From: a virus
UHGV virus genome: UHGV-0241329
Length of the DNA stretch: 31,428 nucleotides
Direction: 5' to 3' (one strand)
Part shown: positions 1,816 to 31,428 of the stretch, piece after piece
Layout of the letters: each line of letters starts with the position of its first letter
Position numbering within the stretch: the first letter of the stretch is position 1
The notes under the pieces: model-generated
What the model was told of the DNA's origin: nothing
The model's database searches: none
The model's input: only the letters and a program-made list of their open reading frames with translations
Program-made: the position numbers and the translations under genes

Positions 1816-2241
1816 TTAGTGCGGAAATATTTGTGTAGTGTTCTGAATGTTCTCAGTAAAGAGTAATGAATTATCAAAGGTATAGTAATACCTTTTGTTT
1901 TCGTGGATATTTGTAATCCATCTGAAAACCCCTGCTGTAGCAAGATTTTTCCTGTATTCGTAAAATGATAACTCTCCTGATTTGAATCCTTTTAAGGTGG
2001 CTTCTATAAGGCATTTATTTTTTGAAAATCTTACATTTACAACCTTACCCTGTCCTTTTATTAAAACCGTATTATCGTTTTCAAGAACAAGATGAATATT
2101 CTCTGTGGCTAAATAGTAAATGTAATGTGAGACATTGTGACGTTTTAGTTCAGAATAAAACCAGTGATAGTTTAAATTATTTCGCACTTTATCGAATATT
2201 TGTTTAAAAATGGCAACCTGAGCCATTGTAGTACCTTCCAT
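1816..2241 (-). CDS. Hypothetical protein, visibly AT-rich moron between lysis cassette and cos
   Basis: 141-aa ORF on reverse strand, AT-rich relative to flanking phage genes; no motif recognised; true start may be the internal Met (MAQVAIF). Confidence 0.5.
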
Positions 2242-2282
2242 GTGATATGAGGGGTGTAGTCTGCACGATTATCTAAATTGCT

Positions 2283-2516
2283 TCAATCTGGTCTGATCTG
2301 TTTTCTGAGCAATTCAGTAATGTCACTCTTTTCTTTGTTTGCTTCAGGAGAAACTCTTTTTTCTGAGCACAGTCTCCGGCGGCAGGCTTCAATGACCCAG
2401 GCTGAGAAATTCCCGGACCCTTTTTGATCAAGAGCGATGTTAATTTGTTCAATCATTGGGTTAGGAAAGCGGATGTTGCGGGTTGTTGTTCTGCGGGTTC
2501 TGTTCTTCGTTGACAT
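2283..2516 (-). CDS. ylcI: Small DNA-binding protein, YlcI/DUF3950-like
   Basis: 77-aa ORF; recalled close match to DLP12 YlcI (MSTKNRTRRTTTRNIRFPN.MIEQINIAL.QKGSGNFSAWVIEACRRRL); sits immediately upstream of cos. Confidence 0.6.
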   Translation of the reverse strand: MSTKNRTRRTTTRNIRFPNPMIEQINIALDQKGSGNFSAWVIEACRRRLCSEKRVSPEANKEKSDITELLRKQIRPD

Positions 2517-3450: not shown

Positions 3451-7131
<3,681 letters not shown>

Positions 7132-8814: not shown

Positions 8815-8835
8815 GCCGCCTGTGCGGCTTTTTTT
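8815..8835 (+). terminator. Stem-loop with T-run between D and E
   Basis: GCCGC-CTGT-GCGGC followed by TTTTTTT. Confidence 0.4.
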
Positions 8836-8848
8836 ACGGGATTTTTTT

Positions 8849-9124
8849 ATGTCGATGTACACAACCGCCCAGCTGCTGGCGGCAAATGAGCAGAAATTTA
8901 AGTTTGATCCGCTGTTTCTGCGTCTCTTTTTCCGTGAGAGCTATCCCTTCACCACGGAGAAAGTCTATCTCTCACAAATTCCTGGACTGGTAAACATGGC
9001 GCTGTACGTTTCGCCAATTGTTTCCGGTGAGGTTATCCGTTCCCGTGGCGGCTCCACCTCTGAATTTACGCCGGGTTATGTCAAGCCGAAGCACTTAGCA
9101 TGGCTTTCTGAGGCTTTCGTGTAG
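8849..9124 (+). pseudogene. E: Major capsid protein E, 5' fragment (about 82 codons) truncated by the insertion and fused to 9 foreign codons (LAWLSEAFV)
   Basis: MSMYTTAQLLAANEQKFKFDPLFLRLFFRESYPFTTEKVYLSQIPGLVNMALYVSPIVSGEVIRSRGGSTSEFTPGYVKPKH matches recalled lambda gpE N-terminus, then diverges at 9094. Confidence 0.9.
9084..9093. repeat. attL core, AGCCGAAGCA (left copy of 10-bp direct repeat)
   Basis: Identical 10-mer at 9084..9093 and 20351..20360, exactly where lambda E homology stops and resumes. Confidence 0.8.
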
Positions 9125-9203
9125 TTGCTGGTTTTTACACTTAATCTTTTGATAATAAAGAATAAGTTTATCTGGCGCTTTCACTGAATTTTCCTCGTTA
9201 TCT

Positions 9204-9245
9204 GTGTGTTGCAATCATCTCTGTATTGCAGCTTGTATTGCTTTT
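9204..9245. repeat. Putative integrase arm-type sites (TGTATTGCA-like repeats) in attL arm
   Basis: TGTTGCAA / TGTATTGCA / TGTATTGC at 9207..9241; same motif twice near attR (20253..20273). Confidence 0.45.
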
Positions 9246-9256
9246 TGGGGCTAAAA

Positions 9257-10492
9257 ATGGCTGGCGAGAACAAACTGAGCGACAAAGCGCTTAAAGGATA
9301 TCTGGGGAAACCCAGAGAAAAGCAGATCACCATTGCTGATGGAAAGGGGCTTTCTATTCGTGTGAGTACTAAAGGGGCTGTGAGCTTTGTTTTCTTCTAC
9401 AGGTTAGCAGGTGGCCGGGCTGCTCCGGTCTGGCTAACGTTGGGTAAATATCCTGATATGTCACTCAAATAGGCAAGGGAAAAGCGCGACGAGTGCCGTG
9501 GTTGGTTGGTTGACAAACGTGATCCGCGTATCCAGATTAAGATTCAGGCTGAAGAACGCTTAAAGCCGGTCACAGTGGAGGATGCACTAAATTACTGGTA
9601 TGAAAATTACTGTAAGGTGCGTCGTAAAACTCATGCTGTAACGCTTGGCAGATTTCGAAAGCATATCTTTCCCTATATCGGTCATTTGCCCGTAAATGAC
9701 ACTCACCTATATGAATGGCTGGACTGTTTTGACCGAATTAAACGTAATGCACCAGTTATGGCGGCGTATGTTTTTTCTGACACTAAATTAGCTCTTCGTT
9801 TTTGTCGGGTACGCCAGTACGCGACGTGTGATGCTTTAAAGGATTTGCGCATGAGTGATGTGGGGCAGATTGCAGGTAAGCGGGATCGGGTTCTGGATGA
9901 AGCCGAACTGGGCCAGCTCTGGAAGGCAATTTTTGTCGAGCCTGATTTAAAACTAATGTCTGAATACACGCGAAAAATGTTTGTGCTTTGTACAGTATTT
10001 GGATGTCGAATGAGTGAAGCCCGATTATCTGAATGGAGCGAATGGGATCTCGAAAGTTGGGTTTGGACTGTACCAAAAGATCACTCAAAAACTGGTGTTG
10101 AAATCGTCAGACCAGTACCTGAAATTCTACGACAGTGGGTAACGGATGTTCACGAAGAGACAAAACATACTGGTTATGTGCTGGGAAGTCTGCGAATTAG
10201 AGAAAGCGTAAGCAAGATTGGGGGGAAAATCGGTAAACGTTTGGGCCATGAAAAACAATGGTCACTACACGACCTTAGAAGAACGCTATCTACTCATCTA
10301 AGTGATCTCGGTGTTGAATTTTATGTAGTAGAACAACTGTTAGGCCATGCGCTACCTGGCGTGGCAGGTGTTTACAACAGGAGTAAGTTTATGGCTAAAA
10401 AACTGGATGCTCTGGAACTCTGGACTACATATCTCAATAGCATCGCAGCTGCTGATTCAAAAGTGACAATCCTCAAACAAAAGGCTGGTTAA
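9257..10492 (+). pseudogene. int: Tyrosine integrase (P4-like family) interrupted by in-frame amber codon TAG at 9470..9472
   Basis: Two same-frame ORFs (9206..9472 and 9506..10492) separated only by TAG; N-terminal arm-binding-like domain; C-terminal catalytic motifs HDLRRT and LLGH..GVAGVYNRS. Confidence 0.8.
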
Positions 10493-10493
10493 C

Positions 10494-10721
10494 ATGAAAA
10501 AAATGGCAATTGTTGATAAAAAGGGTCTGGAGTACATTCCTAACATTGACCGAATGATCCGTGAGAAAGAATGTCGGGAGCTAACCACTCTTGCGAACAG
10601 CACACGCTGGAAGCTGGAGAAGGAAGGAAAATTTCCTAAGCGGATCAAGATTGGCGCTACTGCGGTAGCTTATCGTCTCTCCGAAGTTCAGGCATGGATT
10701 AAGGGAGAATGGAGTAATTAA
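10494..10721 (+). CDS. alpA: AlpA-family phage transcriptional regulator / excisionase-like HTH protein
   Basis: 75-aa ORF immediately after int; sequence resembles CP4-57 AlpA-type HTH proteins (LSEVQAWIKG-like C-terminus). Confidence 0.7.
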   Translation: MKKMAIVDKKGLEYIPNIDRMIREKECRELTTLANSTRWKLEKEGKFPKRIKIGATAVAYRLSEVQAWIKGEWSN

Positions 10722-10739
10722 ATAATAAGGTATTTCGAT

Positions 10740-11561
10740 ATGACAATGTGTGTTATTTGGAAGTCAGTTGATGGAACTATTTATGCCGCCACAGATTCTC
10801 GACTGAGCTTTGAAGAAAAAAAGTTAGATCGTTGCGTTAAAATATCCCGAATCACATGTCTTTTACATGAGCCTAGTGATGCAGTAGATACAAGTAAGAT
10901 ACTTGTTGATAAGCGTGAGATTGCTACATTATTCTGTGGAGGCTTTACAAATGCCTATATCATCAAGGAGAGCCTTACTGAGATTTTAAATAAAATAGTT
11001 CTCATGAGGGAATACTCCGGTGTGCCCTTTTCGGAAATTATAGATATAGCGTTTTCCATTTATGAAGATACATCAAGAGATATGTTTGCATCATTAATGG
11101 ACCAACGATTTGGATGTGTTTTTTACATGATAAGTTACTGCCCTGTATATAAGGAAATGCAAGCATTTAAATTTGAATTCAAAATAAATGAAAGCGGTAT
11201 TAACTATTATAAATCTAAACTTTTTGAAGATCGTAACTATGAGGTTAATGGAAGTGGGGTGAGGTACTTGGAACAAAATCATCGTATTGAAGATCTAGTT
11301 AAAGAAGCTTATCAGAAGAATAAATACACACCACTTCTAGATATACTTGAGTCCGTAATTAATGATGACGACTGTGACTCTGTTGGAGGTGCAATGCAAT
11401 ACATTTCATGTAATAAAGATAGTCTAAAATTGTGTTGTCATATGTTATTTGAAGAAAATAATTATAAGTATATGAAAGCTGGGGTGGACTTAAATGAACT
11501 CAATGAGAAGTTTATACCTTCTGGTTTGTTTTTTGAGACAGATGCAATCATCAAAAGATAA
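10740..11561 (+). CDS. Hypothetical protein, AT-rich cargo gene
   Basis: 273-aa ORF, visibly AT-rich; no motif recognised; N-terminus MTMCVIW... gives only a faint hint of an N-terminal Cys nucleophile. Confidence 0.55.
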   Translation: MTMCVIWKSVDGTIYAATDSRLSFEEKKLDRCVKISRITCLLHEPSDAVDTSKILVDKREIATLFCGGFTNAYIIKESLTEILNKIVLMREYSGVPFSEIIDIAFSIYEDTSRDMFASLMDQRFGCVFYMISYCPVYKEMQAFKFEFKINESGINYYKSKLFEDRNYEVNGSGVRYLEQNHRIEDLVKEAYQKNKYTPLLDILESVINDDDCDSVGGAMQYISCNKDSLKLCCHMLFEENNYKYMKAGVDLNELNEKFIPSGLFFETDAIIKR

Positions 11562-11866
11562 ACGATAACCGACTTTGATTGTGATAATTTTATCAAGATT
11601 ATGATGAATGCTGCAGTATATCTAACATGCTGCAGTTAACTCAATTTGTATTATCGCTAATATTTTTAATAACAAGGATGTTTATTGCTTTTTTATTTGA
11701 GAGTGAACGTCTAACCATTGTTGTTCTTAGTTCTCATGGAGAGATTGGAGCTTAAAATACGCAATGTTTTGAAATCAGCGCAACTATATTCCGTAATTGT
11801 TCTTTGTCGTTCTTGCGTGGCACGGTGATACACCTCTCATGTCGGTTGTTTTTTTGAACGCAGAAA

Positions 11867-11896
11867 CATAAAACAAAGGCGACCGGGATGGTCGCC
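11867..11896 (-). terminator. Intrinsic terminator downstream of the SWIM gene
   Basis: GGCGACC-GGGAT-GGTCGCC perfect 7-bp stem; on reverse strand followed by TTTGTTTTAT. Confidence 0.6.
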
Positions 11897-11964
11897 AGTG
11901 GCATAACACTAAAATTGAGCGTATTCAGAATACCAAGTGTCGGCTGGTGGACAATGGAATCAGT

Positions 11965-12321
11965 TCAATATTTAGGTGGTTCAACAAGAGCGTTTATCAT
12001 TGCTCTCAAATTATCGCGAACACTTATCCAAGTCTGTTCTGCTCGTTCTAACTCATTAGTGTACAGCTTTAATGTTTTATCTATGCCATATGTGGCTATT
12101 AAATTTATAGCTTCTTGTAACTTTTCGGGATTATTCCTTCTTGGGGGAGTGAATATACCGCGGATTTTTCCGGTAATTAAAGCTTTACGGTGTCTACATA
12201 GAATACCTTTACTTCCTGCTGGACAATTACAAGTCATGATTAGCGAGCCAGAATCGTTTGATACAGTGACTATGTATACATCCAAACTACTGCTACTTGT
12301 TGCGAAGAATTCGTATTTCAT
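11965..12321 (-). CDS. Small SWIM-type zinc-finger protein
   Basis: 118-aa ORF with CNC-x9-CRH (CxCx(n)CxH) motif; co-oriented 28 bp downstream of RHH gene. Confidence 0.55.
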   Translation of the reverse strand: MKYEFFATSSSSLDVYIVTVSNDSGSLIMTCNCPAGSKGILCRHRKALITGKIRGIFTPPRRNNPEKLQEAINLIATYGIDKTLKLYTNELERAEQTWISVRDNLRAMINALVEPPKY

Positions 12322-12348
12322 GTGTTAGCTCCTTGACTTCAATTATTC

Positions 12349-12543
12349 TTATCCTTTTGGTTCAATACCGCGCCGTAGCAGCTCTTTGCGCCCTAACTCT
12401 TTAAGCCAGTTGGCAAGGCTTACCCCATCGTTACTGGCTTCGTTATCAAACTGCTCCTTCAATTCAGGAACTATGCGCATATGGAACGGTGGGGCCTTTC
12501 CTGTGCCTTTTTGTTTTTTATCGCGCTTAATAACCGTTGACAT
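12349..12543 (-). CDS. Ribbon-helix-helix (Arc/CopG-like) DNA-binding protein, candidate element repressor
   Basis: 64-aa ORF; FHMRIVPELKEQF beta-strand followed by helices; start codon overlaps a palindromic operator. Confidence 0.5.
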   Translation of the reverse strand: MSTVIKRDKKQKGTGKAPPFHMRIVPELKEQFDNEASNDGVSLANWLKELGRKELLRRGIEPKG

Positions 12544-12600
12544 GTGTACACCTATAGCGTTATGTTTTTATTCGATAGGTGTACACCTTAACATGTGTGC
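12541..12600. promoter_or_regulatory. Divergent control region with palindromic operators
   Basis: GTGTACACCTAT (12544..12555) and its inverted copy ATAGGTGTACAC (12575..12586), each containing palindrome GTGTACAC; ACATGTGT repeated; TTGACA at 12537..12542. Confidence 0.5.
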
Positions 12601-12878
12601 ATTTAAAAACGCAACGCCCCGCAGTGCGGGAACACATGCAGGGCGTCTAACCACCAACGATAGCAACAGTATCGAGGTAGCTATGAGAAATCATACCACA
12701 CACCCGCAAGGGCGGGACTCGCACAACCTGAATAAATTCACTTGGCGCTTTATCGCCCTGAGTGCGGCTAAACCGCGCATGCTTACCATCGTGGTCACCA
12801 GCGAGCAGGAAGACCGCCAGCAATCCCCAACTGGCTGCGTGATGATATTCGCCGCCCGTATTCGTCAGGAGGTGTGCC

Positions 12879-13103
12879 ATGAATGATCTTTATTTTAAAG
12901 TGCTGACACATGCTGAAAACGCGCTCGTTTGTGGCAAAAATATGCGAGAAATCTTATCAACCTGGCTTGATGGGACAACAAATGCGGAACACGATGAACG
13001 GGATGCTAATTTAGCTGGAGCGTTAATTACGTTACTTGATCCTGTCATCAAAGAGCTGGATGAAGCTATAAAAATACACGACCAGAGCTATACCGGAGAA
13101 TAA
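12879..13103 (+). CDS. Hypothetical small protein
   Basis: 74-aa ORF, first gene of the rightward operon leading to primase. Confidence 0.45.
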   Translation: MNDLYFKVLTHAENALVCGKNMREILSTWLDGTTNAEHDERDANLAGALITLLDPVIKELDEAIKIHDQSYTGE

Positions 13104-13106
13104 AAA

Positions 13107-13394
13107 ATGAAAAATAAATTTTCTGGCTTTATTGCCAGCGGTCAAACTCATTCAAAAATCAGCCTTGGGGATATTTTCAAAGACAGCTATGGCTATCGGG
13201 TAAAGATTATTTCGGTTGATGATCGTCGTGTCTCTTATTTGCGTGATGGTTATGATTTTGAATGTGTTATGCCGCGTCAGCAGTTCGAAAGAGATTTCAT
13301 TCTGGTAAAAAATTGCAAGACAGATAATCAGAGGCGTGCCGCAGGCTATATCCGTAAAATTCGGGCAATGTTAGTTGCCGGAGGTAACAAATGA
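13107..13394 (+). CDS. Hypothetical small protein
   Basis: 95-aa ORF; 3' end overlaps primase start (ATGA). Confidence 0.45.
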   Translation: MKNKFSGFIASGQTHSKISLGDIFKDSYGYRVKIISVDDRRVSYLRDGYDFECVMPRQQFERDFILVKNCKTDNQRRAAGYIRKIRAMLVAGGNK

Positions 13395-15211
13395 AACGTG
13401 CTCCGAACTTAAAATACCAACCGCGCGACAAAATGACGGAAGTCATCATTTTTGCTGGCAGTGATGCCTGGAGCCATGCAAAAGAATGGAATGAATGGGC
13501 AGGTAAGCATATTGCAGCAGATGATACACCACCAGTCATTCTGGGTACGGAACAACTGGAAAACCTGGATGATATGCAAATTATCGATGAAGGCCGTCAT
13601 TATGTGCGTGTTTATCGTGCCGGAAAGATTGCAGAGAAAAGTCTGACGAAGGTTGCGACATTACTTGCTATTGCAGGCGTAAAGGAAGCACGTTGTTACC
13701 GTAGCTTTGTTGATCGAGAGCCTGAAGACTGGACTCCGCGCCTTGTCGGCCTAAAAGCTGAAGCGGAGCATGGGGAAAGTCTGGTGATTGAACTGCCAGT
13801 GAAGAAGGCAGAGCGCAAAAATGACGAGCGTGCTTCATCTTTGGCGTTGAATCAGATGGGGGCCAGCCAGCGCGGTGAAGTTCTCCTTGCACATTACGGC
13901 GGTGAACTGGCAATCAATGCCGACTCTGACACCGTTCATCATTACAACGGCGTTGTATGGGAGCCGGTTCAGGATAAAGAGTTACAGCGTTCTATGGCGC
14001 AGATTTTCATTGATGCGGAGATCAGCTATTCGCAGAACGCTATTAAATCGGCGGTAGATACCATGAAGTTAAGTTTGCCTGTAATGGGGAATACAGCCCG
14101 TAACCTGATTGGATTCAGTAACGGGGTATTTGATACCAGAACTGGTAATTTTCGGGAGCATAACAAAAACGACTGGTTGTTAATTGCCAGTGAATTACCT
14201 TTCAGCCCACCAGCAGAGGGGGAAACGCTGGCAACACATGCGCCGAATTTCTGGAAGTGGTTGCGCCGTTCGGTGGCTGAGAATGACCGCAAGGCAGATC
14301 GCGTACTGGCGGCATTATTCATGGTGCTGGCGAACCGGTACGACTGGCAGTTATTCATTGAGGTAACAGGGCCGGGGGGAAGTGGTAAAAGTGTGATGGC
14401 GGAGATTTGCACCATGCTGGCGGGTAAGGCTAATACAGTATCAGCAAGCATGAAGGCGCTGGAAGATGCAAGGGAACGTGCGTTAGTGGTTGGCTTTTCG
14501 CTGATTATCATGCCGGATATGACCCGCTACGCTGGTGATGGGGCAGGGATTAAGGCCATTACAGGCGGTGACAAGGTGGCAATTGACCCGAAACACAAAG
14601 CCCCCTATTCAACGCGTATTCCGGCAGTAGTGCTGGCGGTTAACAATAACGCCATGTCATTCAGTGACCGCAGCGGGGGGATCTCACGTCGTCGGGTGAT
14701 ATTCAATTTTTCGGAAGTTGTACCGGAGAACGAACGCGATTCGATGCTGGCGGAAAAAATAGAAGGTGAGCTGGCGGTAGTGATTCGTCATCTGCTTACA
14801 AGGTTTGCTGATCAGGACGAAGCCAGACGCCTGTTATATGAGCAGCAGAAATCTGAAGAAGCACTGGCGATAAAGCGAGAGGGGGATTCGCTGGTGGACT
14901 TCTGCGGTTATCTCATGGCATCGGTAATGTGTGATGGCCTGTTAGTGGGTAATGCTGAAATTGTGCCATTCAGCCCACGCAGGTATCTCTATCATGCCTA
15001 TCTGGCTTATATGAGGGCACATGGGTTTGGTAAACCTGTAACACTGACGCGCTTCGGTAAAGATATGCCGGGGGCAATGGCGGAATATGGCAGGGAGTAT
15101 ATGAAACGGAAAACGAAGCACGGTTTGCGTTCAAACGTGACACTGACGGAGGAATCAGAAGACTGGATGCCATCATGTGTATCGGTCACTAATGACGATA
15201 GCAAAAATTAA
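13391..15211 (+). CDS. Primase-helicase replication protein (P4 alpha / PICI Pri-Rep-like)
   Basis: 606-aa ORF; Walker A EVTGPGGSGKS in C-terminal half; followed directly by iteron origin. Confidence 0.75.
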   Translation: MKRAPNLKYQPRDKMTEVIIFAGSDAWSHAKEWNEWAGKHIAADDTPPVILGTEQLENLDDMQIIDEGRHYVRVYRAGKIAEKSLTKVATLLAIAGVKEARCYRSFVDREPEDWTPRLVGLKAEAEHGESLVIELPVKKAERKNDERASSLALNQMGASQRGEVLLAHYGGELAINADSDTVHHYNGVVWEPVQDKELQRSMAQIFIDAEISYSQNAIKSAVDTMKLSLPVMGNTARNLIGFSNGVFDTRTGNFREHNKNDWLLIASELPFSPPAEGETLATHAPNFWKWLRRSVAENDRKADRVLAALFMVLANRYDWQLFIEVTGPGGSGKSVMAEICTMLAGKANTVSASMKALEDARERALVVGFSLIIMPDMTRYAGDGAGIKAITGGDKVAIDPKHKAPYSTRIPAVVLAVNNNAMSFSDRSGGISRRRVIFNFSEVVPENERDSMLAEKIEGELAVVIRHLLTRFADQDEARRLLYEQQKSEEALAIKREGDSLVDFCGYLMASVMCDGLLVGNAEIVPFSPRRYLYHAYLAYMRAHGFGKPVTLTRFGKDMPGAMAEYGREYMKRKTKHGLRSNVTLTEESEDWMPSCVSVTNDDSKN

Positions 15212-15220
15212 ACTTATGGA

Positions 15221-15455
15221 ATAACTGTTCACCACTGTTCACCCTGTCATAAATATCTTTTATATCAGTATATTATAGGGTGAACAGTTATTTATGAACT
15301 GTTCACCAAACTATTCACTGTTCACCTTTTTGATTGTTTATTGAGCTTCAAGGGTGAACAGTGGTGAACAGTTGGTGAATAGTTTTTGTGAAACTGTTCA
15401 CCCATTAACATTATGAATTAAAAGAGAAAATATCAAAAGGTGAACAGGTGAAGGG
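15221..15455. repeat. ori: Replication origin with iterons (TGTTCACC / GGTGAACA), at least 9 copies in both orientations
   Basis: CTGTTCACC at 15225 and 15235; GGTGAACAG at 15278, 15352, 15362, 15439; further copies at 15299, 15318, 15394; interspersed AT-rich stretches. Confidence 0.75.
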
Positions 15456-15498
15456 TTAAAACGCAAAAATTTTAATTTACTGCTGTGAGATAAAGCCT

Positions 15499-15744
15499 AT
15501 GACAGCGAAGCACACAAAAAAATCACAATCGCACGCCCTTGATTTGACGGAACACTGGTTAAGGGTGTCGATAAAAATCATCGACCGCAACGCCGGGGAA
15601 GGATACGCGAAAGCACATCCCGAACTGATTAGCGCATTCATGACAACGGCGGCTGCAAACTTTGCCACTCTGACCGAACGGGAGATTGCTGAAGCGGAGG
15701 AAGTGACAACAATCAATATTAAGTCCGGAGAGCAGGCAGCATGA
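15499..15744 (+). CDS. Hypothetical protein
   Basis: 81-aa ORF between ori and ssb; ATGA overlap with ssb. Confidence 0.45.
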   Translation: MTAKHTKKSQSHALDLTEHWLRVSIKIIDRNAGEGYAKAHPELISAFMTTAAANFATLTEREIAEAEEVTTINIKSGEQAA

Positions 15745-16190
15745 CGGCGCAAATATCAGTTTACGGGCGGTTGGTGGACGACCCGCAGACAAAACAGACC
15801 AGCAAGAGCACCCCCATGACGCTGGCACGTATGGCGGTATCACTGCCCTGCAGTCAGTCGGATGACGGTCAGGCGACGATGTGGTTATCTGTCCTGGCGT
15901 TTGGCAGACAAGCCGACGCGCTGGCAAAGCATCACAAAGGCGAACTCCTGAGCGTGGCGGGTAATATGCAGGTGAGCCAGTGGACTGGACAGAACGGTGA
16001 AACGCGGCAGGGCTGGCAGGTTATCGCAGACAGCGTAATCAGTGCGCGAACGGTGCGACCGGGCGGCAAAAAAGGTCAACAGGGTCAGGCTACTGACGCA
16101 CTGAACAGAGCAAAACAACAGGCAGATCAGCAAGGAAGCCATCCACCAGTGGGAGATAATGAGCAATGGGGAGATGATATTCCGTTTTAA
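15741..16190 (+). CDS. ssb: Single-stranded DNA-binding protein
   Basis: 149-aa ORF; Gly/Gln-rich linker and acidic C-terminal tail ...GDDIPF, typical of SSB. Confidence 0.8.
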   Translation: MTAQISVYGRLVDDPQTKQTSKSTPMTLARMAVSLPCSQSDDGQATMWLSVLAFGRQADALAKHHKGELLSVAGNMQVSQWTGQNGETRQGWQVIADSVISARTVRPGGKKGQQGQATDALNRAKQQADQQGSHPPVGDNEQWGDDIPF

Positions 16191-16402
16191 ATATTGCCAA
16201 TAAAAAAGGCCGGAAAAAAAATAAATTTTCCGGCATGCTACATAAATCCCGACCAAAGGGAGTGAAGATATTAACACTAATTATCCGCGCTGAAGTTGTT
16301 ATCCCAAAACTTTATACAACATTGCACTCGGTTGCATGTATTCGCATGATAAATATCGGTGATAGCATATATCCACAATTATTTTTAATGAATGCAAAGA
16401 GG

Positions 16403-17449
16403 ATGCGTATGGTTGATTTATATTCGCCTACCCAGCTTGTACAGGTGGTTAATGCTGTAGATGTACAAAAACAACTAAATGCGTTGTTTACCAGTTTGTT
16501 TTTTACTCGCTCGGTAATGTTTGAATCGCGCGATATTATTCTTGATACAATCGACGATCCAAATATCCCAATTGCAGCGTTTTGTTCTCCTATGGTGGGT
16601 AGTAAAGTTTCACGTGACGAAGGGTACGAATCAAAAACAATTCGTCCAGGCTATATGAAGCCGAAAAGCAGCATTGATCCAAATAAGTTAGCTGTGCGCC
16701 CTGCTGGTGTATCACCTGAGCAATACAATGCTTTTGGAGCGCGTAATATTAAAGTTAAACAGGCGATTGTAAATCAGGCTAAAGCTATTCGTGCACGTAT
16801 TGAATGGCTTGCCGTTCAGGCAATCACAACGGGGAAAAATATCATTGAGGGCGATGGTATTGAACGTTATGAGCTGGACTGGAATATTAAACCACAAAAT
16901 ATCATCACTCAGTCTGGCGGTGCTGAGTGGTCAGGTAAGGATAAAGAAACTTTTGATCCAAATGATGATATTGAGAGCTACGCAGAATTTAGTGAGGGCG
17001 TCACTAATATCATCATTATGGGCGGTAATGTATGGAAGAAATACCGTTCATTCAGAGCGATAAAAGAGGCTCTGGATACCCGTCGTGGTTCTAATTCCGA
17101 ACTGGAAACGGCCCTTAAAGACCTTGGTGATTCGGTGAGTTTTAAAGGGTATATGGGCGATGTTGCGATTGTTGTATACAGCGGGCGTTATACCGATGAG
17201 GACGGAACTGAAAAACATTTCCTTGATCCTGATTTGATGGTGCTTGGCAATACAGCTCTTCAGGGGATTGTCGCCTATGGCGGTATTCAGGATCCGGAGC
17301 TAATCCGAATGGGGCTGACTAAAGCCGAACTTGCACCGAAAAACTATATTGTGCCTGGTGATCCGGCTATTGAATATGTGCAGACACATTCAGCACCACA
17401 GCCAATACCGGCCCGCATCAATCGTTTTGTTACCGTTCGCATTGGCTAA
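16403..17449 (+). CDS. Major capsid protein, divergent homolog of lambda gpE, encoded by the element
   Basis: Aligns along its length with lambda gpE, e.g. ITQSGGAEWSGKDKETFDPNDDIESYA vs ITQSGGTEWSKRDKSTYDPTDDIEAYA, and LDTRRGSNSELETA identical; start uncertain among ATG 16388/16403/16409. Confidence 0.8.
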   Translation: MRMVDLYSPTQLVQVVNAVDVQKQLNALFTSLFFTRSVMFESRDIILDTIDDPNIPIAAFCSPMVGSKVSRDEGYESKTIRPGYMKPKSSIDPNKLAVRPAGVSPEQYNAFGARNIKVKQAIVNQAKAIRARIEWLAVQAITTGKNIIEGDGIERYELDWNIKPQNIITQSGGAEWSGKDKETFDPNDDIESYAEFSEGVTNIIIMGGNVWKKYRSFRAIKEALDTRRGSNSELETALKDLGDSVSFKGYMGDVAIVVYSGRYTDEDGTEKHFLDPDLMVLGNTALQGIVAYGGIQDPELIRMGLTKAELAPKNYIVPGDPAIEYVQTHSAPQPIPARINRFVTVRIG

Positions 17450-17458
17450 GGGGGAGCA

Positions 17459-17800
17459 ATGGCTACTCATTACACTGAACTCATGGCTGGCACTGAAGCA
17501 CTGGTGACTACGCTGGGGATATTTTCAGCTAATAAAGGGGTAATTCCTGCATTTACGCCACTGATGCAGGAAGATGCAACAGGTGCACTGGTGGTATGGG
17601 ATGGTTCGAGCGTAGGTAAAGCGGTTTATGTTTCCGCTGTACAAATCGACACCGCGAAAAAAACACAGGCTCAGGTCTATAAGACAGGTGTCTTAAATGT
17701 TGATGCTCTGAACTGGCCTGAGTCTGTAAAAGAACTGTCAGTAAAGATTGCAGCGTTTGTTGGCTCAGGTATTTCTGTTCAGCCGCTGGCTCGTGTGTAA
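17459..17800 (+). CDS. Head decoration protein, divergent homolog of lambda gpD
   Basis: 113 aa; LVVWDGSSVGKAVYVSAVQ...KTGVLNVDALNWPE...AAFVGSGISV parallels lambda gp[20 protein letters not shown]...[14 protein letters not shown]...[11 protein letters not shown]. Confidence 0.65.
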   Translation: MATHYTELMAGTEALVTTLGIFSANKGVIPAFTPLMQEDATGALVVWDGSSVGKAVYVSAVQIDTAKKTQAQVYKTGVLNVDALNWPESVKELSVKIAAFVGSGISVQPLARV

Positions 17801-17811
17801 AGGGGGATACA

Positions 17812-18195
17812 ATGCAGAATGATTACAATGACCTTAAGCCAATTGCCGAAATGATGTACCCGAATCCAGCTGTAGAGGAATTAAAAGCTATCGCTGACAA
17901 AATGTGTTTAAGCGAGCGCCTTGTTGATATGAATCAGGTGATGGAAATTACAACCCTGAGTCGGCGTACACTGCTAAACCTTGAGGCTAGTGGAGAGTTC
18001 CCGGAGCGTGTGCAGGTTACGGAAGGGCGTAAGGCCTGGTATTTAAGTGAAGTGATCGACTGGATAAATAATATTCCTCGCGCTTCTGAATATTGCCGCG
18101 TACCTGTCCCAAAAAAGCCAGATGCGGCGCTATGCCTCAAGATTGAGCGTGTACGCCGCAATGCACGGGATGGTCGCTATAAGCTGATTGGTTGA
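17812..18195 (+). CDS. HTH protein (AlpA-like DNA-binding segment) immediately upstream of element cos
   Basis: 127 aa; segment MNQVMEITTLSRRTLLNLEASGEFPERVQVTEGRKAWYLSEVIDWINN resembles AlpA/MerR-type HTH. Confidence 0.5.
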   Translation: MQNDYNDLKPIAEMMYPNPAVEELKAIADKMCLSERLVDMNQVMEITTLSRRTLLNLEASGEFPERVQVTEGRKAWYLSEVIDWINNIPRASEYCRVPVPKKPDAALCLKIERVRRNARDGRYKLIG

Positions 18196-18214
18196 TGAAA
18201 TTAGGGCCCGCTCT

Positions 18215-18425
18215 GGCTGGCGGGTCCTTTCTGGCGATCTGACAGGCTACGGGGCGTCAGGCGCGCAGATTCTTGCTATTTATGACAATTTTCTGCGATT
18301 TGCCGTTTCCGTTCTTCTTCCTCGTAACTTAGTGTTTTTATTAGAAATACCCTCTAAAAAGAAAGGAAATGACAGGTGCTGAAAACAGGCTTTTGGGTCT
18401 CCGTCATTTCCTTTCTCATTTTTAT
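18215..18425 (+). other. cos: Element cos site, homologous to prophage cos but with divergent cohesive-end sequence GGGCGTCAGGCG (18252..18263)
   Basis: Aligns with 2690..2900: cosQ-like GCGGGTCCTTTCTGGCGATCTGACAGGCTACG and cosB-like GTTTCCGTTCTTCTTC / AAAGAAAGGAAATGACAGGTGCTGAAA conserved; cohesive-end 12-mer differs at 5 of 12 positions. Confidence 0.8.
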
Positions 18426-18679
18426 CTAAAAGTAAGCATCGAGGCCACCCCAAATGCTTATAGAGGTTATTGTGTCACTATGCGTACTGTTCAGGATTTA
18501 AAGTAGCAAGACATCTAGTTGCTTGCAGTTTTGGCGAATGATGTGAGGTTCTGCTATAACAGATAATGTAACAAGTTACTGATATATTCTGTTATGGTTG
18601 ACTTTAAATTTTGTTGCTCCTTCAATGAATTATTGAGGGGTGAAAATTAGGCGTGATAAGAATCGATCACGCCTATTGT

Positions 18680-19996
18680 TTATCTTGAAGAAATTTTAGG
18701 CAGGCTTTTTAAAAATAAATCTTTATTTCTACTTGCATCAGTTAAAAGTGTTAGGAATATTTTATCTGTAGGAGTGCATGTGCTCTTGTTTAACAGTAAT
18801 TCACCAAGTTTCTGTAATCGAGAGAATTGCCCATCCTCTTGGATTCTGTGACGAAGTGTACTATCATTTTTAATAACATCAACAAATGCAGAAACCATGT
18901 TAATATCAAAGTGTTCAAACATTTCCAATATTAAAGGTGCAGCCCCATTTGAATAAAAATTCTTCCTTCCATACTGATAGCTGAAACCACGATGGCCAAC
19001 ATAAGTTTTTGTAATGGCTGAAACAAATTCAACAATATTATCTTCAGGGACGAAACTCGAGAATGGTAATAATTGGGTTACGATTTTTTCCTCTTCTGAC
19101 CAATTATCTAAAGACTCGGTGAGTTTATTAATGAGAGGCTCAATAATAACTTTTCGGGATGCAGGGCTAATATACATCAGTCCATCTACCAATAGTATGA
19201 ATTGTTGTGCCTTCTCTATCTTATTGTTGTTTCCTGAAACTAAATACTTGTCAAATTGTTGGCCGACTTTACGTCGGTCGTCTTTTGAAAGTAATGTCCA
19301 TAAAATAGGTGCGCAAAATTCAATGTTGTTTCTGAGTTCACTTGATATATTGGATGAGCAGTATGTGCCAAAAAAACGAGAGGATAATTCACTGATATAA
19401 ATTGCAGGTAGATCTGAAAAGGCTTGCTTAACTGCCAGGCTATTTTTATTAAATGTTGCCGAATCCATTTCTGAAAGATATGTAGATATATCTATGATGG
19501 CTGGTGGAAACTCTTTAGAAAGAACGTATTTATTACAATCATTAATCAGGTTCACTACTTTGATTAAATCAGGGTCGCTACTTTGTGGATGTCCACCAAA
19601 TAGATTCCTGGTTTCTCTAGCTTGTTGTAATAGTTTCTGACCTTCTCGATCGATAACTCCTATTTTAAATGCTCCATCTATTAAATCAAAGTCGCTCACA
19701 TAATCCTGAAAATCTTCATACGTTTTAATTTCTTTTTTTTGTTTACACTCTTTGTTGAATAGATCTAGGCTACGATGAATTATCTTTTGACGTAAATCAT
19801 CAACTACAGCATTCCAGTAAGCAGTGATGGCACTTCTATAACCTTTTACAGGAAGAACTCTTATTGCTTCTGAAATATATGGGCAGTCAACTACATCATG
19901 CCTCACAGTTGAGAGCGCAGTTTGTAACAATGTAACTTCTGTAGAGTCTAGTGGAGTTGGCTGCACTAAATGAGAACTTATCTCTGTACCCTTCAT
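18680..19996 (-). CDS. Hypothetical protein, AT-rich cargo gene at attR end
   Basis: 438-aa ORF on reverse strand, visibly AT-rich; no motif recognised; hairpin AGGCGTGAT-N8-ATCACGCCT at 18649..18674 just 3' of it. Confidence 0.55.
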   Translation of the reverse strand: MKGTEISSHLVQPTPLDSTEVTLLQTALSTVRHDVVDCPYISEAIRVLPVKGYRSAITAYWNAVVDDLRQKIIHRSLDLFNKECKQKKEIKTYEDFQDYVSDFDLIDGAFKIGVIDREGQKLLQQARETRNLFGGHPQSSDPDLIKVVNLINDCNKYVLSKEFPPAIIDISTYLSEMDSATFNKNSLAVKQAFSDLPAIYISELSSRFFGTYCSSNISSELRNNIEFCAPILWTLLSKDDRRKVGQQFDKYLVSGNNNKIEKAQQFILLVDGLMYISPASRKVIIEPLINKLTESLDNWSEEEKIVTQLLPFSSFVPEDNIVEFVSAITKTYVGHRGFSYQYGRKNFYSNGAAPLILEMFEHFDINMVSAFVDVIKNDSTLRHRIQEDGQFSRLQKLGELLLNKSTCTPTDKIFLTLLTDASRNKDLFLKSLPKISSR

Positions 19997-20350
19997 TTCA
20001 GGATTTTCCTATTCTTTTCCATTTTTCTACTCTATTGAATTTGAAAAAGATATCAAGTTCGTTCTTGCCAGTTTTAAGTGGAAAAATTGATGTTACCTTA
20101 TTGAGATAAGGCAGTTCTCTATAACCTATTGTTATTAATTATTTTTATTTTTTTTCCAATTCAGATGTTTAGGGCTAAGAAGTTAAGTGAGAGTTCACAG
20201 CAAAACTGCTTCTAGTTCCTCACCGAGGAGCAAAAGGTTAAGACAGCGTACTTTGTATTGCACAATGTATTGCAGAACCTTCTTTCGAAAGCTACAACAA
20301 TCAATTTTATATTGAAAATTCAATCATATCCTTTCGATATTGACTCATAT

Positions 20351-20360
20351 AGCCGAAGCA
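20351..20360. repeat. attR core, AGCCGAAGCA (right copy of 10-bp direct repeat)
   Basis: Identical to 9084..9093; lambda E homology resumes here. Confidence 0.8.
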
Positions 20361-21141
20361 TGAGGTGAATCCGCAGATGACCCTGCGTCGCCTGCCGGAT
20401 GAAGATCCGCAGAATCTGGCGGACCCGGCTTACCGCCGCCGTCGCATCATCCTGCAGAACATGCGTGACGAAGAGCTGGCCATTGCTCAGGTCGAAGAGA
20501 TGCAGGCAGTTTCTGCCGTGCTCAAGGGCAAATACACCATGACCGGTGAAGCCTTCGATCCGGTTGAGGTGGATATGGGCCGCAGTGCGGCGAACAACAT
20601 CACGCAGTCCGGCGGCACGGAGTGGAGCAAGCGTGACAAGTCCACGTATGACCCGACCGACGATATCGAAGCCTACGCGCTGAACGCCAGCGGCGTGGTG
20701 AATATCATCGTGTTTGATCCGAAAGGCTGGGCGCTGTTCCGTTCCTTCAAAGCCGTCAAGGAGAAGCTGGATACCCGTCGCGGCTCTAATTCCGAGCTGG
20801 AGACAGCGGTAAAAGACCTGGGCGAAGCGGTGTCCTATAAGGGGATGTATGGCGATACGGCGATCGTCGTGTATTCCGGACAGTACGTGGAAAACGACGT
20901 CAAAAAGAACTTCCTGCCGGACAACACGATGGTGCTGGGGAACACTCAGGCACGCGGTCTGCGCACCTATGGCTGCATTCAGGATGCGGACGCACAGCGC
21001 GAAGGTATTAACGCCTCTGCCCGCTACCCGAAAAACTGGGTGACCACCGGCGATCCGGCGCGTGAGTTCACCATGATTCAGTCAGCACCGCTGATGCTGC
21101 TGGCTGATCCTGATGCGTTCGTGTCCGTACAACTGGCGTAA
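20353..21141 (+). pseudogene. E: Major capsid protein E, 3' fragment (from codon about 80) lacking its native start
   Basis: PKHEVNPQMTLRRLPDEDPQNLADPAYRRRR...VSVQLA matches recalled lambda gpE C-terminal 260 aa; in-frame TAG at 20350..20352 immediately upstream. Confidence 0.9.
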
Positions 21142-29481: not shown

Positions 29482-31428
29482 AATGGGTAAAGGCAGCAGT
29501 AAGGGGCATACTCCGCGCGAAGCGAAGGACAACCTGAAGTCCACGCAGTTGCTGAGTGTGATCGATGCCATCAGCGAAGGGCCGGTTGAAGGTCCGGTGG
29601 ATGGATTAAAAAGCGTGCTGCTGAACAGTACGCCAGTGCTGGACAGTGAGGGGAATACCAATATCTCCGGCGTCACGGTGGTGTTCCGGGCCGGTGAGCA
29701 GGAGCAGACACCGCCGGAGGGATTTGAATCCTCCGGCTCCGAGACGGTGCTGGGTACGGAAGTGAAATACGACACGCCGATCACCCGGACCATCACGTCG
29801 GCAAACATTGACCGACTGCGTTTTACCTTCGGCGTGCAGGCACTGGTGGAAACCACCTCAAAGGGGGACAGGAATCCGTCGGAAGTCCGCCTGCTGGTTC
29901 AGATCCAGCGTAATGGTGGCTGGGTGACGGAAAAAGACATCACCATTAAGGGCAAAACCACCTCGCAGTATCTGGCCTCGGTGGTGGTGGGTAACCTGCC
30001 GCCGCGCCCGTTCAATATCCGGATGCGCAGGATGACGCCGGACAGCACCACAGACCAGCTGCAGAACAAAACGCTCTGGTCGTCATACACCGAAATCATC
30101 GATGTGAAACAGGGCTACCCGAACACGGCACTGGTCGGCGTGCAGGTGGATTCGGAGCAGTTCGGCAGCCAGCAGGTGAGCCGTAATTATCATCTGCGCG
30201 GGCGCATTCTGCAGGTGCCGTCGAACTATAACCCGCAGACGCGGCAATACAGCGGTATCTGGGACGGAACGTTTAAACCGGCATACAGCAACAACATGGC
30301 CTGGTGTCTGTGGGATATGCTGACCCATCCGCGCTACGGCATGGGGAAACGTCTTGGTGCGGCGGATGTGGATAAATGGGCGCTGTATGTCATCGGCCAG
30401 TACTGCGACCAGTCAGTGCCGGACGGCTTTGGCGGCACGGAGCCGCGCATCACCTGTAATGCGTACCTGACCACACAGCGCAAGGCGTGGGATGTGCTCA
30501 GTGATTTCTGCTCGGCGATGCGCTGTATGCCGGTATGGAACGGGCAGACGCTGACGTTCGTGCAGGACCGACCATCAGATAAGGTGTGGACCTATAACCG
30601 CAGTAATGTGGTGATGCCGGATGATGGCGCGCCGTTCCGCTACAGCTTCAGCGCCCTGAAGGACCGCCATAATGCCGTTGAGGTGAACTGGATTGACCCG
30701 AATAACGGCTGGGAGACGGCGACAGAGCTTGTTGAAGATACGCAGGCCATTCTCCGTTACGGTCGTAACGTCACGAAAATGGATGCTTTTGGCTGTACCA
30801 GCCGGGGGCAGGCACACCGCGCCGGGCTGTGGCTGATTAAAACAGAACTGCTGGAAACGCAGACTGTGGACTTCAGCGTGGGCGCAGAAGGGCTTCGCCA
30901 TGTGCCGGGCGATGTCATTGAAATCTGTGATGATGACTATGCGGGTATCAGCATCGGCGGGCGCGTGCTGGCGGTAAACAGCCAGACCCGGACGCTGACG
31001 CTCGACCGTGAAATCACGCTGCCATCCTCCGGTACCACGCTGATAAGCCTGGTTGACGGAAGTGGCAATCCGGTCAGCGTGGAGGTTCAGTCCGTCACCG
31101 ACGGCGTGAAGGTGAAAGTGAGCCGTGTTCCTGACGGTGTTGCTGAATACAGCGTGTGGGGGCTGAAGCTGCCGACGCTGCGCCAGCGCCTGTTCCGCTG
31201 CGTGAGTATCCGTGAGAACGACGACGGCACGTATGCCATCACCGCCGTGCAGCATGTACCGGAAAAAGAAGCCATCGTGGATAACGGGGCGCACTTTGAC
31301 GGCGACCAGAGCGGCACGGTGAATGGTGTCACGCCGCCAGCGGTGCAGCACCTGACCGCCGAAGTCACCGCAGACAGCGGGGAATATCAGGTGCTGGCGC
31401 GCTGGGACACGCCGAAGGTGGTGAAGGG
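29482..31428 (+). CDS. J: Central tail fibre / host specificity protein J (5' partial, runs off window)
   Basis: Open frame from ATG 29482 starting MGKGSSKGHTPREAKDNLKSTQLLSVIDAISEGPVEGPVDGLKSVLLNSTPVLD, recalled lambda gpJ; no stop before window end. Confidence 0.9.

Follow-up and report, generated by a model that had tools for sequence, protein, structure and literature searches.

The window analysed here, a stretch of 31,428 bp, holds a lambda-like prophage whose major capsid gene E is split by 11,267 bp of other DNA (core counted once), and raises the question of what this insert is and whether it can leave again to give the prophage back its capsid gene. The reading frame at 8822-9124 follows lambda gpE as far as ...PGYVKPKH and then continues through nine foreign codons (LAWLSEAFV) to a stop at 9122-9124, and lambda E resumes in the translation from 20353 (PKHEVNPQMTLRR...). 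The 10-mer AGCCGAAGCA is present exactly twice in the window (9084-9093 and 20351-20360), and the next base is C at the left copy but T at the right one, so that the codon reads CAC or CAT, both specifying His. E is interrupted at codons 79-82, where lambda E carries gtcaAGCCGAAGCAtga. A recombinant of 8849..9093 and 20361..21141 is 1,026 nt long, in frame, and encodes 341 aa, of which 334 (98%) are identical to lambda E (J02459) without gaps. The original prediction had described the divergence after ...PGYVKPKH, the resumption at 20353, the shared 10-mer with its two His codons, and the rebuilding of an uninterrupted E by excision across it, all of which were borne out; the join that it proposed, 8849..9096 plus 20353..21141, doubles the core and does not stay in frame. 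The 3' fragment of E lacks a start codon in register, and the attP brings no replacement sequence, the E frame ending in the satellite, so that the target is disrupted for as long as the element is integrated. The helper cannot express E while the satellite is in place, and the gene is restored when recombination takes place across the 10-bp core. The flanking head genes have a G+C content of 0.57-0.60, as compared with 0.34-0.50 within the insert. The predicted excision junctions read ...GTCAAGCCGAAGCATGAGGTG... for the rebuilt E site and ...CTCATATAGCCGAAGCACTTAGCATGG... for the satellite circle.

Judged by its sequence, the insert is a phage-inducible chromosomal island (PICI) of the helper-embedded kind (HE-PICI), of the site group E:Phage_cap_E:80 and a close relative of Eco567.11capE. 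HE-PICIs, including this group, were described by Tommasini, Mageeney & Williams (NAR Genom Bioinform 2023; PMC10111431); the supplement gives 201 instances at the E:Phage_cap_E:80 site and tabulates the att identity block "agccgaagca" 85 times, with passages that assign it to this group. The insert had been predicted to be a satellite integrated site-specifically in the major capsid gene of its helper and blocking the helper's own E, and so it is, in the same orientation as E; the accompanying view that it could not be placed in a described satellite family was wrong, since the same core is tabulated for this HE-PICI group (PMC10111431). Site, core and induction experiment are in the literature, as a 2022 preprint and the 2023 paper, so the element is already known and the window adds one more catalogued instance.

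Several features carry this assignment. The int, alpA, primase and capsid genes share the + strand with E and the neighbouring late genes, and AGCCGAAGCA stands at both junctions, as in the site group. The order int-alpA, variable zone, primase-SSB and late E-D matches the four zones of the published elements, namely integration with AlpA, variable ('Bro/dynamic'), replication with primase and SSB, and late (PMC10111431). This zone order and the length of 11,267 bp, within the class of about 10-15 kb, are those of Gram-negative PICIs, and lysis and tail genes are absent. The integrase is 99% identical over 328 aa to that of 11capE, its gene being broken at codon 72. In the published group, the attP centre has a doubled tgTGTATTGCantgTGTATTGCa motif on either side, one about 81 bp away upstream and one about 132 bp away downstream (PMC10111431). 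We found the doubled motif at 9222-9241 and 20254-20273, the only two matches in the window with 0 expected, at about 131.5 and 81.5 bp from the core centre and thus at the published spacing; it is probably bound by the arm domain of the integrase. No evidence against HE-PICI membership was found. Taken together, we give a probability of about 93% to the explanation as a whole, that is, an HE-PICI in helper E, its excision cycle, and an integrase lesion specific to this copy (Table 1).

Table 1. Positions of the split gene E, the attachment sites and the satellite features in the window, with the evidence for each.
Feature	Position	Strand	Evidence
Helper major capsid gene E, 5' part (codons 1-82)	8849..9093	+	Pfam Phage_cap_E, E=3e-15 over profile positions 1-78; no difference from lambda E over residues 1-82
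attL, 10-bp identity block AGCCGAAGCA	9084..9093	+	One of two copies in window; identity block of E_Phage_cap_E_80 HE-PICIs per PMC10111431 supplement
Doubled TGTATTGC motif (tcTGTATTGCagctTGTATTGCt), ~132 bp from core centre	9220..9242	+	Pattern count; motif and spacing match PMC10111431
Tyrosine integrase, in-frame TAA at 9470-9472 (codon 72)	9257..10492	+	Translation; Pfam Arm-DNA-bind_3 residues 1-71, Phage_integrase downstream
AlpA-family regulator/excisionase	10494..10721	+	Pfam Phage_AlpA, E=6e-15
273-aa protein, variable 'Bro/dynamic' zone	10740..11561	+	phrog_16034, no assigned function
SWIM zinc-finger protein	11965-12321	-	Pfam SWIM
64-aa Arc/HicB-like small DNA-binding protein	12349-12543	-	PHROG Arc-like repressor, E=2e-5
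Icd-like remnant	12611-12886	+	RefSeq annotation of near-identical ET665 copy
74-aa protein	12879-13103	+	RefSeq annotation of near-identical ET665 copy
DUF4222 protein	13107-13394	+	Pfam DUF4222
Primase/helicase (D5_N, DUF5906, Pox_D5)	13391..15211	+	Pfam
Putative replication origin, ~11 iterons GGTGAACAGT/ACTGTTCACC, both orientations	15212..15460	.	Repeat search
81-aa protein	within 15499..16190	+	phrog_1231, no assigned function
SSB	15741-16190	+	Pfam/PHROG
Satellite gpE-like major capsid protein, 346 aa, intact	16409..17449	+	Pfam Phage_cap_E, E=2e-41
Satellite gpD-like head decoration protein	17459..17800	+	Pfam HDPD, E=4e-15; 38% identical to helper D
Second AlpA-family winged-helix protein, 127 aa, directly upstream of cos-like site	17812..18195	+	Pfam Phage_AlpA; PDB 8c3t (AlpA-family), E=2e-9
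cos-like packaging site	18220..18423	+	blastn/alignment: 82.5% identical to helper cos region 2684-2887
Variable cargo, 438-aa protein, G+C ~0.35	18680..19996	-	phrog_27609, no assigned function
Second doubled TGTATTGC motif, ~81 bp from core centre	20252..20274	+	Pattern count; spacing match PMC10111431
attR, 10-bp identity block AGCCGAAGCA	20351..20360	+	Second of two copies in window
Helper gene E, 3' part (codons 83-341)	20361..21141	+	Pfam Phage_cap_E profile positions 94-328; lambda E alignment

Eco567.11capE, the type element in E. coli NRG857c, shares with the present copy the target gene and codon, the attL and attR flanks, the gene order, the doubled motif and a cos-like site at the same place. 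The integrases are 99% identical, the capsid proteins 100% identical (WP_000228111 in NRG857c), and the head decoration and second AlpA proteins identical by RefSeq accession. The two elements differ in the core, which reads AGCCGAAGCA in the present copy and AACCCAAGCA in that of NRG857c, the published supplement having both; in the variable zone, with the 273-aa and SWIM proteins here and other genes in NRG857c; in the cargo at the right end, a 438-aa protein here and HEPN plus DUF262 in NRG857c; and in the premature integrase stop of the present copy.

This stop codon bears directly on the question of whether the insert can leave. The TAA falls within the Arm-DNA-bind_3 domain, and the 328 aa that match the 11capE integrase are those downstream of it. 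The base at 9470 is T in the present copy, as against C in ET665 and 16 other copies, and no second occurrence of the nonsense allele was found in those 16 copies, in GTDB representative genomes or in JGI metagenomes. In lambda-type integrases, arm binding is needed for recombination between attL and attR. With the TAA at codon 72, therefore, self-excision of the present copy cannot be assumed. If the base at 9470 is real, the catalytic part is without its arm-binding domain and the satellite is probably unable to excise itself; the helper would then stay without its own E unless integrase came in trans. One possible explanation is that the same HE-PICI is fully functional, like 11capE, the TAA being a sequencing or assembly error, or excision being achieved with help in trans or by an integrase that re-initiates and lacks the arm domain. 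In ET665, the nearest complete genome, the helper sequence is a different one and the element differs by 4 substitutions and one 1-bp indel over 11,256 bp. As compared with this near-identical copy, the stop amounts to a single C-to-T change, all other satellite genes examined are open, and an allele seen nowhere else fits an error or a very recent mutation. However, T at 9470 is what the window shows, the codon lies inside the very domain on which attL x attR recombination depends, and the ET665 copy also carries one nonsense mutation, in its capsid gene, indicating that decay of embedded copies occurs. We regard full function of the present copy as quite conceivable, although short of probable.

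The gpE-like protein of the satellite is 42% identical to the rebuilt helper E, and the DNA at the homologous site reads AAGCCGAAAAGC, the core being absent. The original prediction that the element supplies its own shell genes stood only for the gpE-like and gpD-like genes; satellite portal, protease/scaffold, terminase and tail genes were not detected in the insert. The two proteins may serve to form satellite-sized heads or to stand in for the split E. A further reading, in which the nonsense codon is real and locks the satellite, helper heads come only from the satellite gpE and gpD paralogues, and the arrangement is an intermediate of capsid-gene replacement in a lambdoid phage or a permanent disarming of the prophage by its own satellite, seems improbable to us.

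At the position of the 273-aa protein, strain EC4 has a gene of equal length annotated as DUF2971; the 273-aa protein itself had no Pfam, PADLOC, NCBIfam or PDB match, and no Bro-N domain was detected in the variable zone. The iteron region is probably the replication origin of the satellite, a role suggested by its position downstream of the primase, where PICI origins map (PMC10111431). P4-like immunity RNAs are reported in some HE-PICIs (PMC10111431); in our Rfam search, C4 and isrK RNAs gave no match at gathering score or E<=1. The 438-aa cargo protein had no Pfam, PADLOC, NCBIfam or PDB match. In other copies, the cargo slot is occupied by HEPN plus DUF262, by an Abi protein, or by terS, and TIR-domain proteins are annotated in further copies.

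A cos-like site has been reported for 11capE (PMC10111431), and in the present copy its cosB-like part is conserved with the helper. The 12-nt cosN is GGGCGTCAGGCG in the satellite and GGGCGGCGACCT in the helper (2716-2727); it differs at 5/12 positions, so that cutting by the helper terminase is an assumption. The exact 19-mer with the variant cosN occurs in 57 viral contigs, mostly satellites. We considered GGGCGTCAGGCG as a satellite-specific signal and rejected this, as it also lies some 190 bp upstream of a Nu1 of the helper type (98-99% identical) in L015, L049 and L060; in L049, E is uninterrupted. The 127-aa protein was likewise considered as an Rpp-like packaging redirector and set aside, its sequence match being only to an AlpA-family structure, with no Rpp entry. 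The helper genes S, R, Rz, Nu1, A, B, C, D and J can be recognised and have open frames, J starting at 29483 and remaining open to the window end; apart from E, the late genes of this lambda-like prophage that fall in the window appear intact. On the + strand, the interval from the E fragment to int contained no terminator-like site.

A rival idea takes the insert for an integrative or defence island of a generic sort, or for what is left of a prophage, that landed by chance in a cryptic prophage and has no satellite-helper link. The right-end slot, with its defence-type cargo in other copies, would suit such an island, and virions or plaques were not recovered even for Eco567.11capE (PMC10111431). 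However, the gene set of int, AlpA and primase is the PICI hallmark and lysis and tail genes are missing, the cos-like site shares homology with that of the helper, the capsid and decoration genes belong to the helper's own family, and the insert has the orientation of the late operon. Furthermore, the 14 target sites of the HE-PICI integrase clade are all in prophage late genes (PMC10111431), and thus chance landing is no explanation. We consider an unrelated island very unlikely.

The original prediction had suggested a search for the same element at the same E codon and for alleles with an empty site, and both were found. Of 5,426 complete E. coli genomes, 173, among them NRG857c, have the attL junction, comprising the E 5' part and the satellite end, at a coverage of >=80%. 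Empty E sites occur in about 3,100 of the same 5,426 genomes, one of them 100% identical, and the rebuilt 400-bp empty site matches uninterrupted E in 80 phage records. That the junctions are an assembly chimera with nothing truly inside E, a reading for which we found no support, is excluded by the recurrence of the left junction in 173 independently assembled genomes and has next to no likelihood, given also the precise register of core copies and doubled motifs, the base-for-base alignment of attL and attR with NRG857c, EC4 and STEC711, and the precise excision of the type element in NRG857c after mitomycin C, as detected by qPCR and deep sequencing (PMC10111431).

For the HE-PICI that we favour, a life cycle can be outlined. 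In the HE-PICI family, SOS induction causes the composite of prophage and satellite to leave the chromosome and replicate, and later the satellite integrase recombines attL with attR across the 10-bp block, by which the circle is freed and E restored (PMC10111431). Helper late transcription would run into the co-oriented int, alpA, primase and capsid genes, and the satellite would replicate from its own iteron origin with its own primase and SSB. The helper terminase would then package the satellite from the cos-like site, and the heads would be joined to helper tails.

The element resembles EcCICFT073 and other Gram-negative PICIs (Fillol-Salom et al. 2018; 2019, PMC6739421) in its int-AlpA-primase arrangement, its size of about 11 kb, its lambdoid cos-type helper, and a cos site on the island for packaging, terS being absent from the present copy. 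In contrast, those PICIs are inserted into genes of the chromosome, their interaction with the helper being in trans only. Packaging of the Rpp type, known from EcCICFT073, goes with an Rpp protein and with a cosB that is unlike the helper's, and the present element does not fit it: the cosB-like region here is helper-like, cosN differs, and a relative of Rpp was not detected by sequence. By the abstract of a bioRxiv paper (10.1101/2022.09.08.507074), capsid-forming PICIs (cf-PICIs) have genes for every protein required in producing and filling their capsids, which we take to mean portal, protease/scaffold, head-tail connectors and terminase, and borrow just the tails from the helper; the present element likewise has capsid genes of its own, but these are limited to gpE-like and gpD-like genes.

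Excisable elements that interrupt a host gene are exemplified by the skin element in sigK of B. subtilis. As in such cases of regulated gene integrity, a class invoked in PMC10111431, a split gene is restored by precise excision at a defined time; here, however, the interrupted gene is that of another mobile element, the helper phage, and it is the satellite that the timing benefits. By excising itself, a parasite of a virus controls when that virus can produce capsid. The integrase stop in the present copy and the capsid stop in ET665 are a small reminder that embedded copies decay, which is relevant to the number of HE-PICIs on record, and of their helpers, that remain alive.

Gene E, which encodes the major capsid protein of the lambda-like helper prophage, is split in the window. 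Its 5' part starts at 8849 and matches lambda gpE through ...PGYVKPKH, followed by nine foreign codons and a stop, and the gpE sequence picks up again at 20353 (PKHEVNPQ...). The att core AGCCGAAGCA, a 10-bp identity block, is present in exactly two copies in the window, at 9084-9093 (attL) and 20351-20360 (attR). These data confirm the split E gene described in the original prediction. Its literal join of the two parts counted the core twice and was out of frame; the true recombinant is 8849..9093 plus 20361..21141 (1,026 nt, 341 aa). The recombined E showed gap-free identity to lambda E (J02459) at 334 of 341 residues, and lambda E carries AGCCGAAGCAT at the core-equivalent codons. With a single core copy, the insert is 11,267 bp long, and its G+C content of 0.34-0.50 is lower than that of the head genes (about 0.58). 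Element-free E alleles, as anticipated, were found: the rebuilt 400-bp empty site was uninterrupted in 80 phage records, and also in approximately 3,100 of 5,426 complete E. coli genomes, one at 100% identity. The attL junction was also seen in 173 of the 5,426 complete genomes, which rules out an assembly chimera.

In E. coli NRG857c, ET665, EC4 and STEC711, the element was likewise located between the halves of a lambdoid E gene, with the same late genes on either side as in the window. The core 9.3 kb of the element showed 98-99.7% identity in many complete E. coli genomes, indicating that the element family is common. We found that the att core has two alleles, AGCCGAAGCA and AACCCAAGCA, which are synonymous in E. 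The latter is present at both ends in NRG857c (5990-6000 and 17059-17069 of its locus, L002). In the four genomes examined (window, NRG857c, EC4 and STEC711), attL and attR carry one allele per genome, and the flanks in the att alignments are common to all four.

The gene content of the insert is the Gram-negative PICI satellite set, and portal, protease, terminase, tail and lysis genes are absent from it. The iteron block probably represents the satellite replication origin.

Features of the satellite insert, with the helper cosN for reference
Feature	Position in window	Remark
Helper cosN	2716-2727	exact lambda cosN
Doubled TGTATTGC motif, left copy	9222-9241	
Tyrosine integrase	9257-10492	
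AlpA	right of integrase	
Variable stretch	after AlpA	273-aa unknown protein, leftward SWIM protein, small Arc/HicB-like protein, Icd-like remnant
DUF4222 protein	between variable stretch and primase	
D5/DUF5906 primase	13391-15211	
Iterons GGTGAACAGT/ACTGTTCACC	15212-15460	about eleven 10-mers, both orientations, between primase gene and next ORF
SSB	between iteron block and gpE-like gene	
gpE-like capsid gene	16409-17449	42% identity to helper E
gpD-like decoration gene	right of gpE-like gene	38% identity to helper D
Second AlpA-family protein	between gpD-like gene and cos-like site	
cos-like stretch, 204 bp	18220-18423	82.5% identity to helper cos region 2684-2887
Cargo gene, 438 aa	right of cos-like site	low G+C, leftward, function unknown
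Doubled TGTATTGC motif, right copy	20254-20273	

The original prediction could place the insert in no described satellite family. This was incorrect, and the claim of novelty is unsupported because the element is already known. Helper-embedded PICIs (HE-PICIs) were described by Tommasini, Mageeney and Williams (NAR Genomics and Bioinformatics 2023, PMC10111431; preprint July 2022), who catalogued 491 of them at 14 late-gene sites, including 201 at this E site. Their type element, Eco567.11capE of NRG857c, is an 11-kb PICI that disrupts a lambda-E-type capsid gene by integration, carries its own capsid gene and has a 10-bp identity block (PMC10111431). As compared with this element, the window integrase is 99% identical and the satellite capsid protein 100% identical. 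The doubled motif tgTGTATTGCantgTGTATTGCa, whose published distances from the attP centre are 81±2 bp on the upstream side and 132±2 bp on the downstream side (PMC10111431), lies here at about 81.5 and 131.5 bp. In the supplementary table, 'agccgaagca' occurs 85 times and 'aacccaagca' 72 times, and both are assigned to this site group in the entries examined (PMC10111431). All defining features of HE-PICIs that can be tested on sequence were found, and on these features the insert is a member of the family. The biological interpretation originally offered, that of a satellite in its helper's capsid gene with shell genes of its own, was correct, the shell genes being limited to the gpE-like and gpD-like ones.

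With the type element, mitomycin C caused precise excision of the composite and its replication, followed by late excision of the satellite restoring E; the predicted attB and attP were obtained, and no particles were recovered by the authors (PMC10111431). In the scheme of these authors, with which the window is consistent, helper late transcription would enter the co-oriented satellite, the satellite would bring its own primase and origin, and packaging may occur at its cos-like site via the helper cos machinery. From the E fragment to int, the + strand showed no terminator-like site. At the att-homologous position (16655-16668), the satellite capsid gene reads AAGCCGAAAAGC. It matches the core over the leading 8 of its 10 bases (AGCCGAAG vs AGCCGAAA...) and diverges thereafter, in line with a published comment calling self-integration unlikely.

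In the cos-like site, the helper-like cosB repeats are kept, whereas the 12-nt cosN is GGGCGTCAGGCG in the satellite and GGGCGGCGACCT in the helper. The satellite form is conserved in four satellites, including those of NRG857c, EC4 and STEC711. It was also found upstream of a helper-type Nu1 in three IMG/VR contigs (L015, L049 and L060), one of which has an intact E, so that it is not exclusive to satellites and circulates among lambdoid phages too. Isolated phages in the GenBank set gave no match above 84.5% to the satellite cos region.

Between the cos-like site and attR lies a hotspot of variable cargo (window 18450-20250; NRG857c locus L002, 14936-16910; STEC711 locus L004, 22120-24113). 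This slot is occupied by the 438-aa protein (phrog_27609) in the window and in EC4, by HEPN and DUF262 in NRG857c, and by terS (small terminase) together with an Abi protein in STEC711. For the 438-aa protein, Pfam, PADLOC, NCBIfam and PDB gave no match. In other copies of the element, the annotation includes TIR-domain proteins.

The helper late region comprises holin, lysozyme, Rz, cosN, Nu1, A, portal, C protease and D, and the tail genes follow the insert up to J, which is still open at the window end. Two leftward helper genes (1816-2516, minus strand), encoding a DUF1398 protein and a DUF3950/YlcI-YnfO-type protein, lie where the G+C content is low (0.41), with the lysis cassette on one side and cos on the other, which is a typical lambdoid moron position.

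The reading frame of the satellite integrase is interrupted by a TAA at codon 72 (9470-9472). This stop falls inside the Arm-DNA-bind_3 domain, ahead of the core-binding and catalytic domains. The near-identical ET665 copy, differing only by four substitutions and one 1-bp indel, has CAA at this codon; its nonsense codon lies instead in the capsid gene of the satellite, where it has T and the window has G (window position 16802). All 16 other copies among the fetched loci have C at 9470, and neither GTDB representative genomes nor JGI metagenomes contained the T allele. If the base is real, the satellite is probably unable to excise unaided, leaving the helper E split. We give such a locked copy about the same chance as the alternatives, namely rescue in trans or an error in sequencing. 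Beyond the known family, this copy contributes an apparently decayed integrase.
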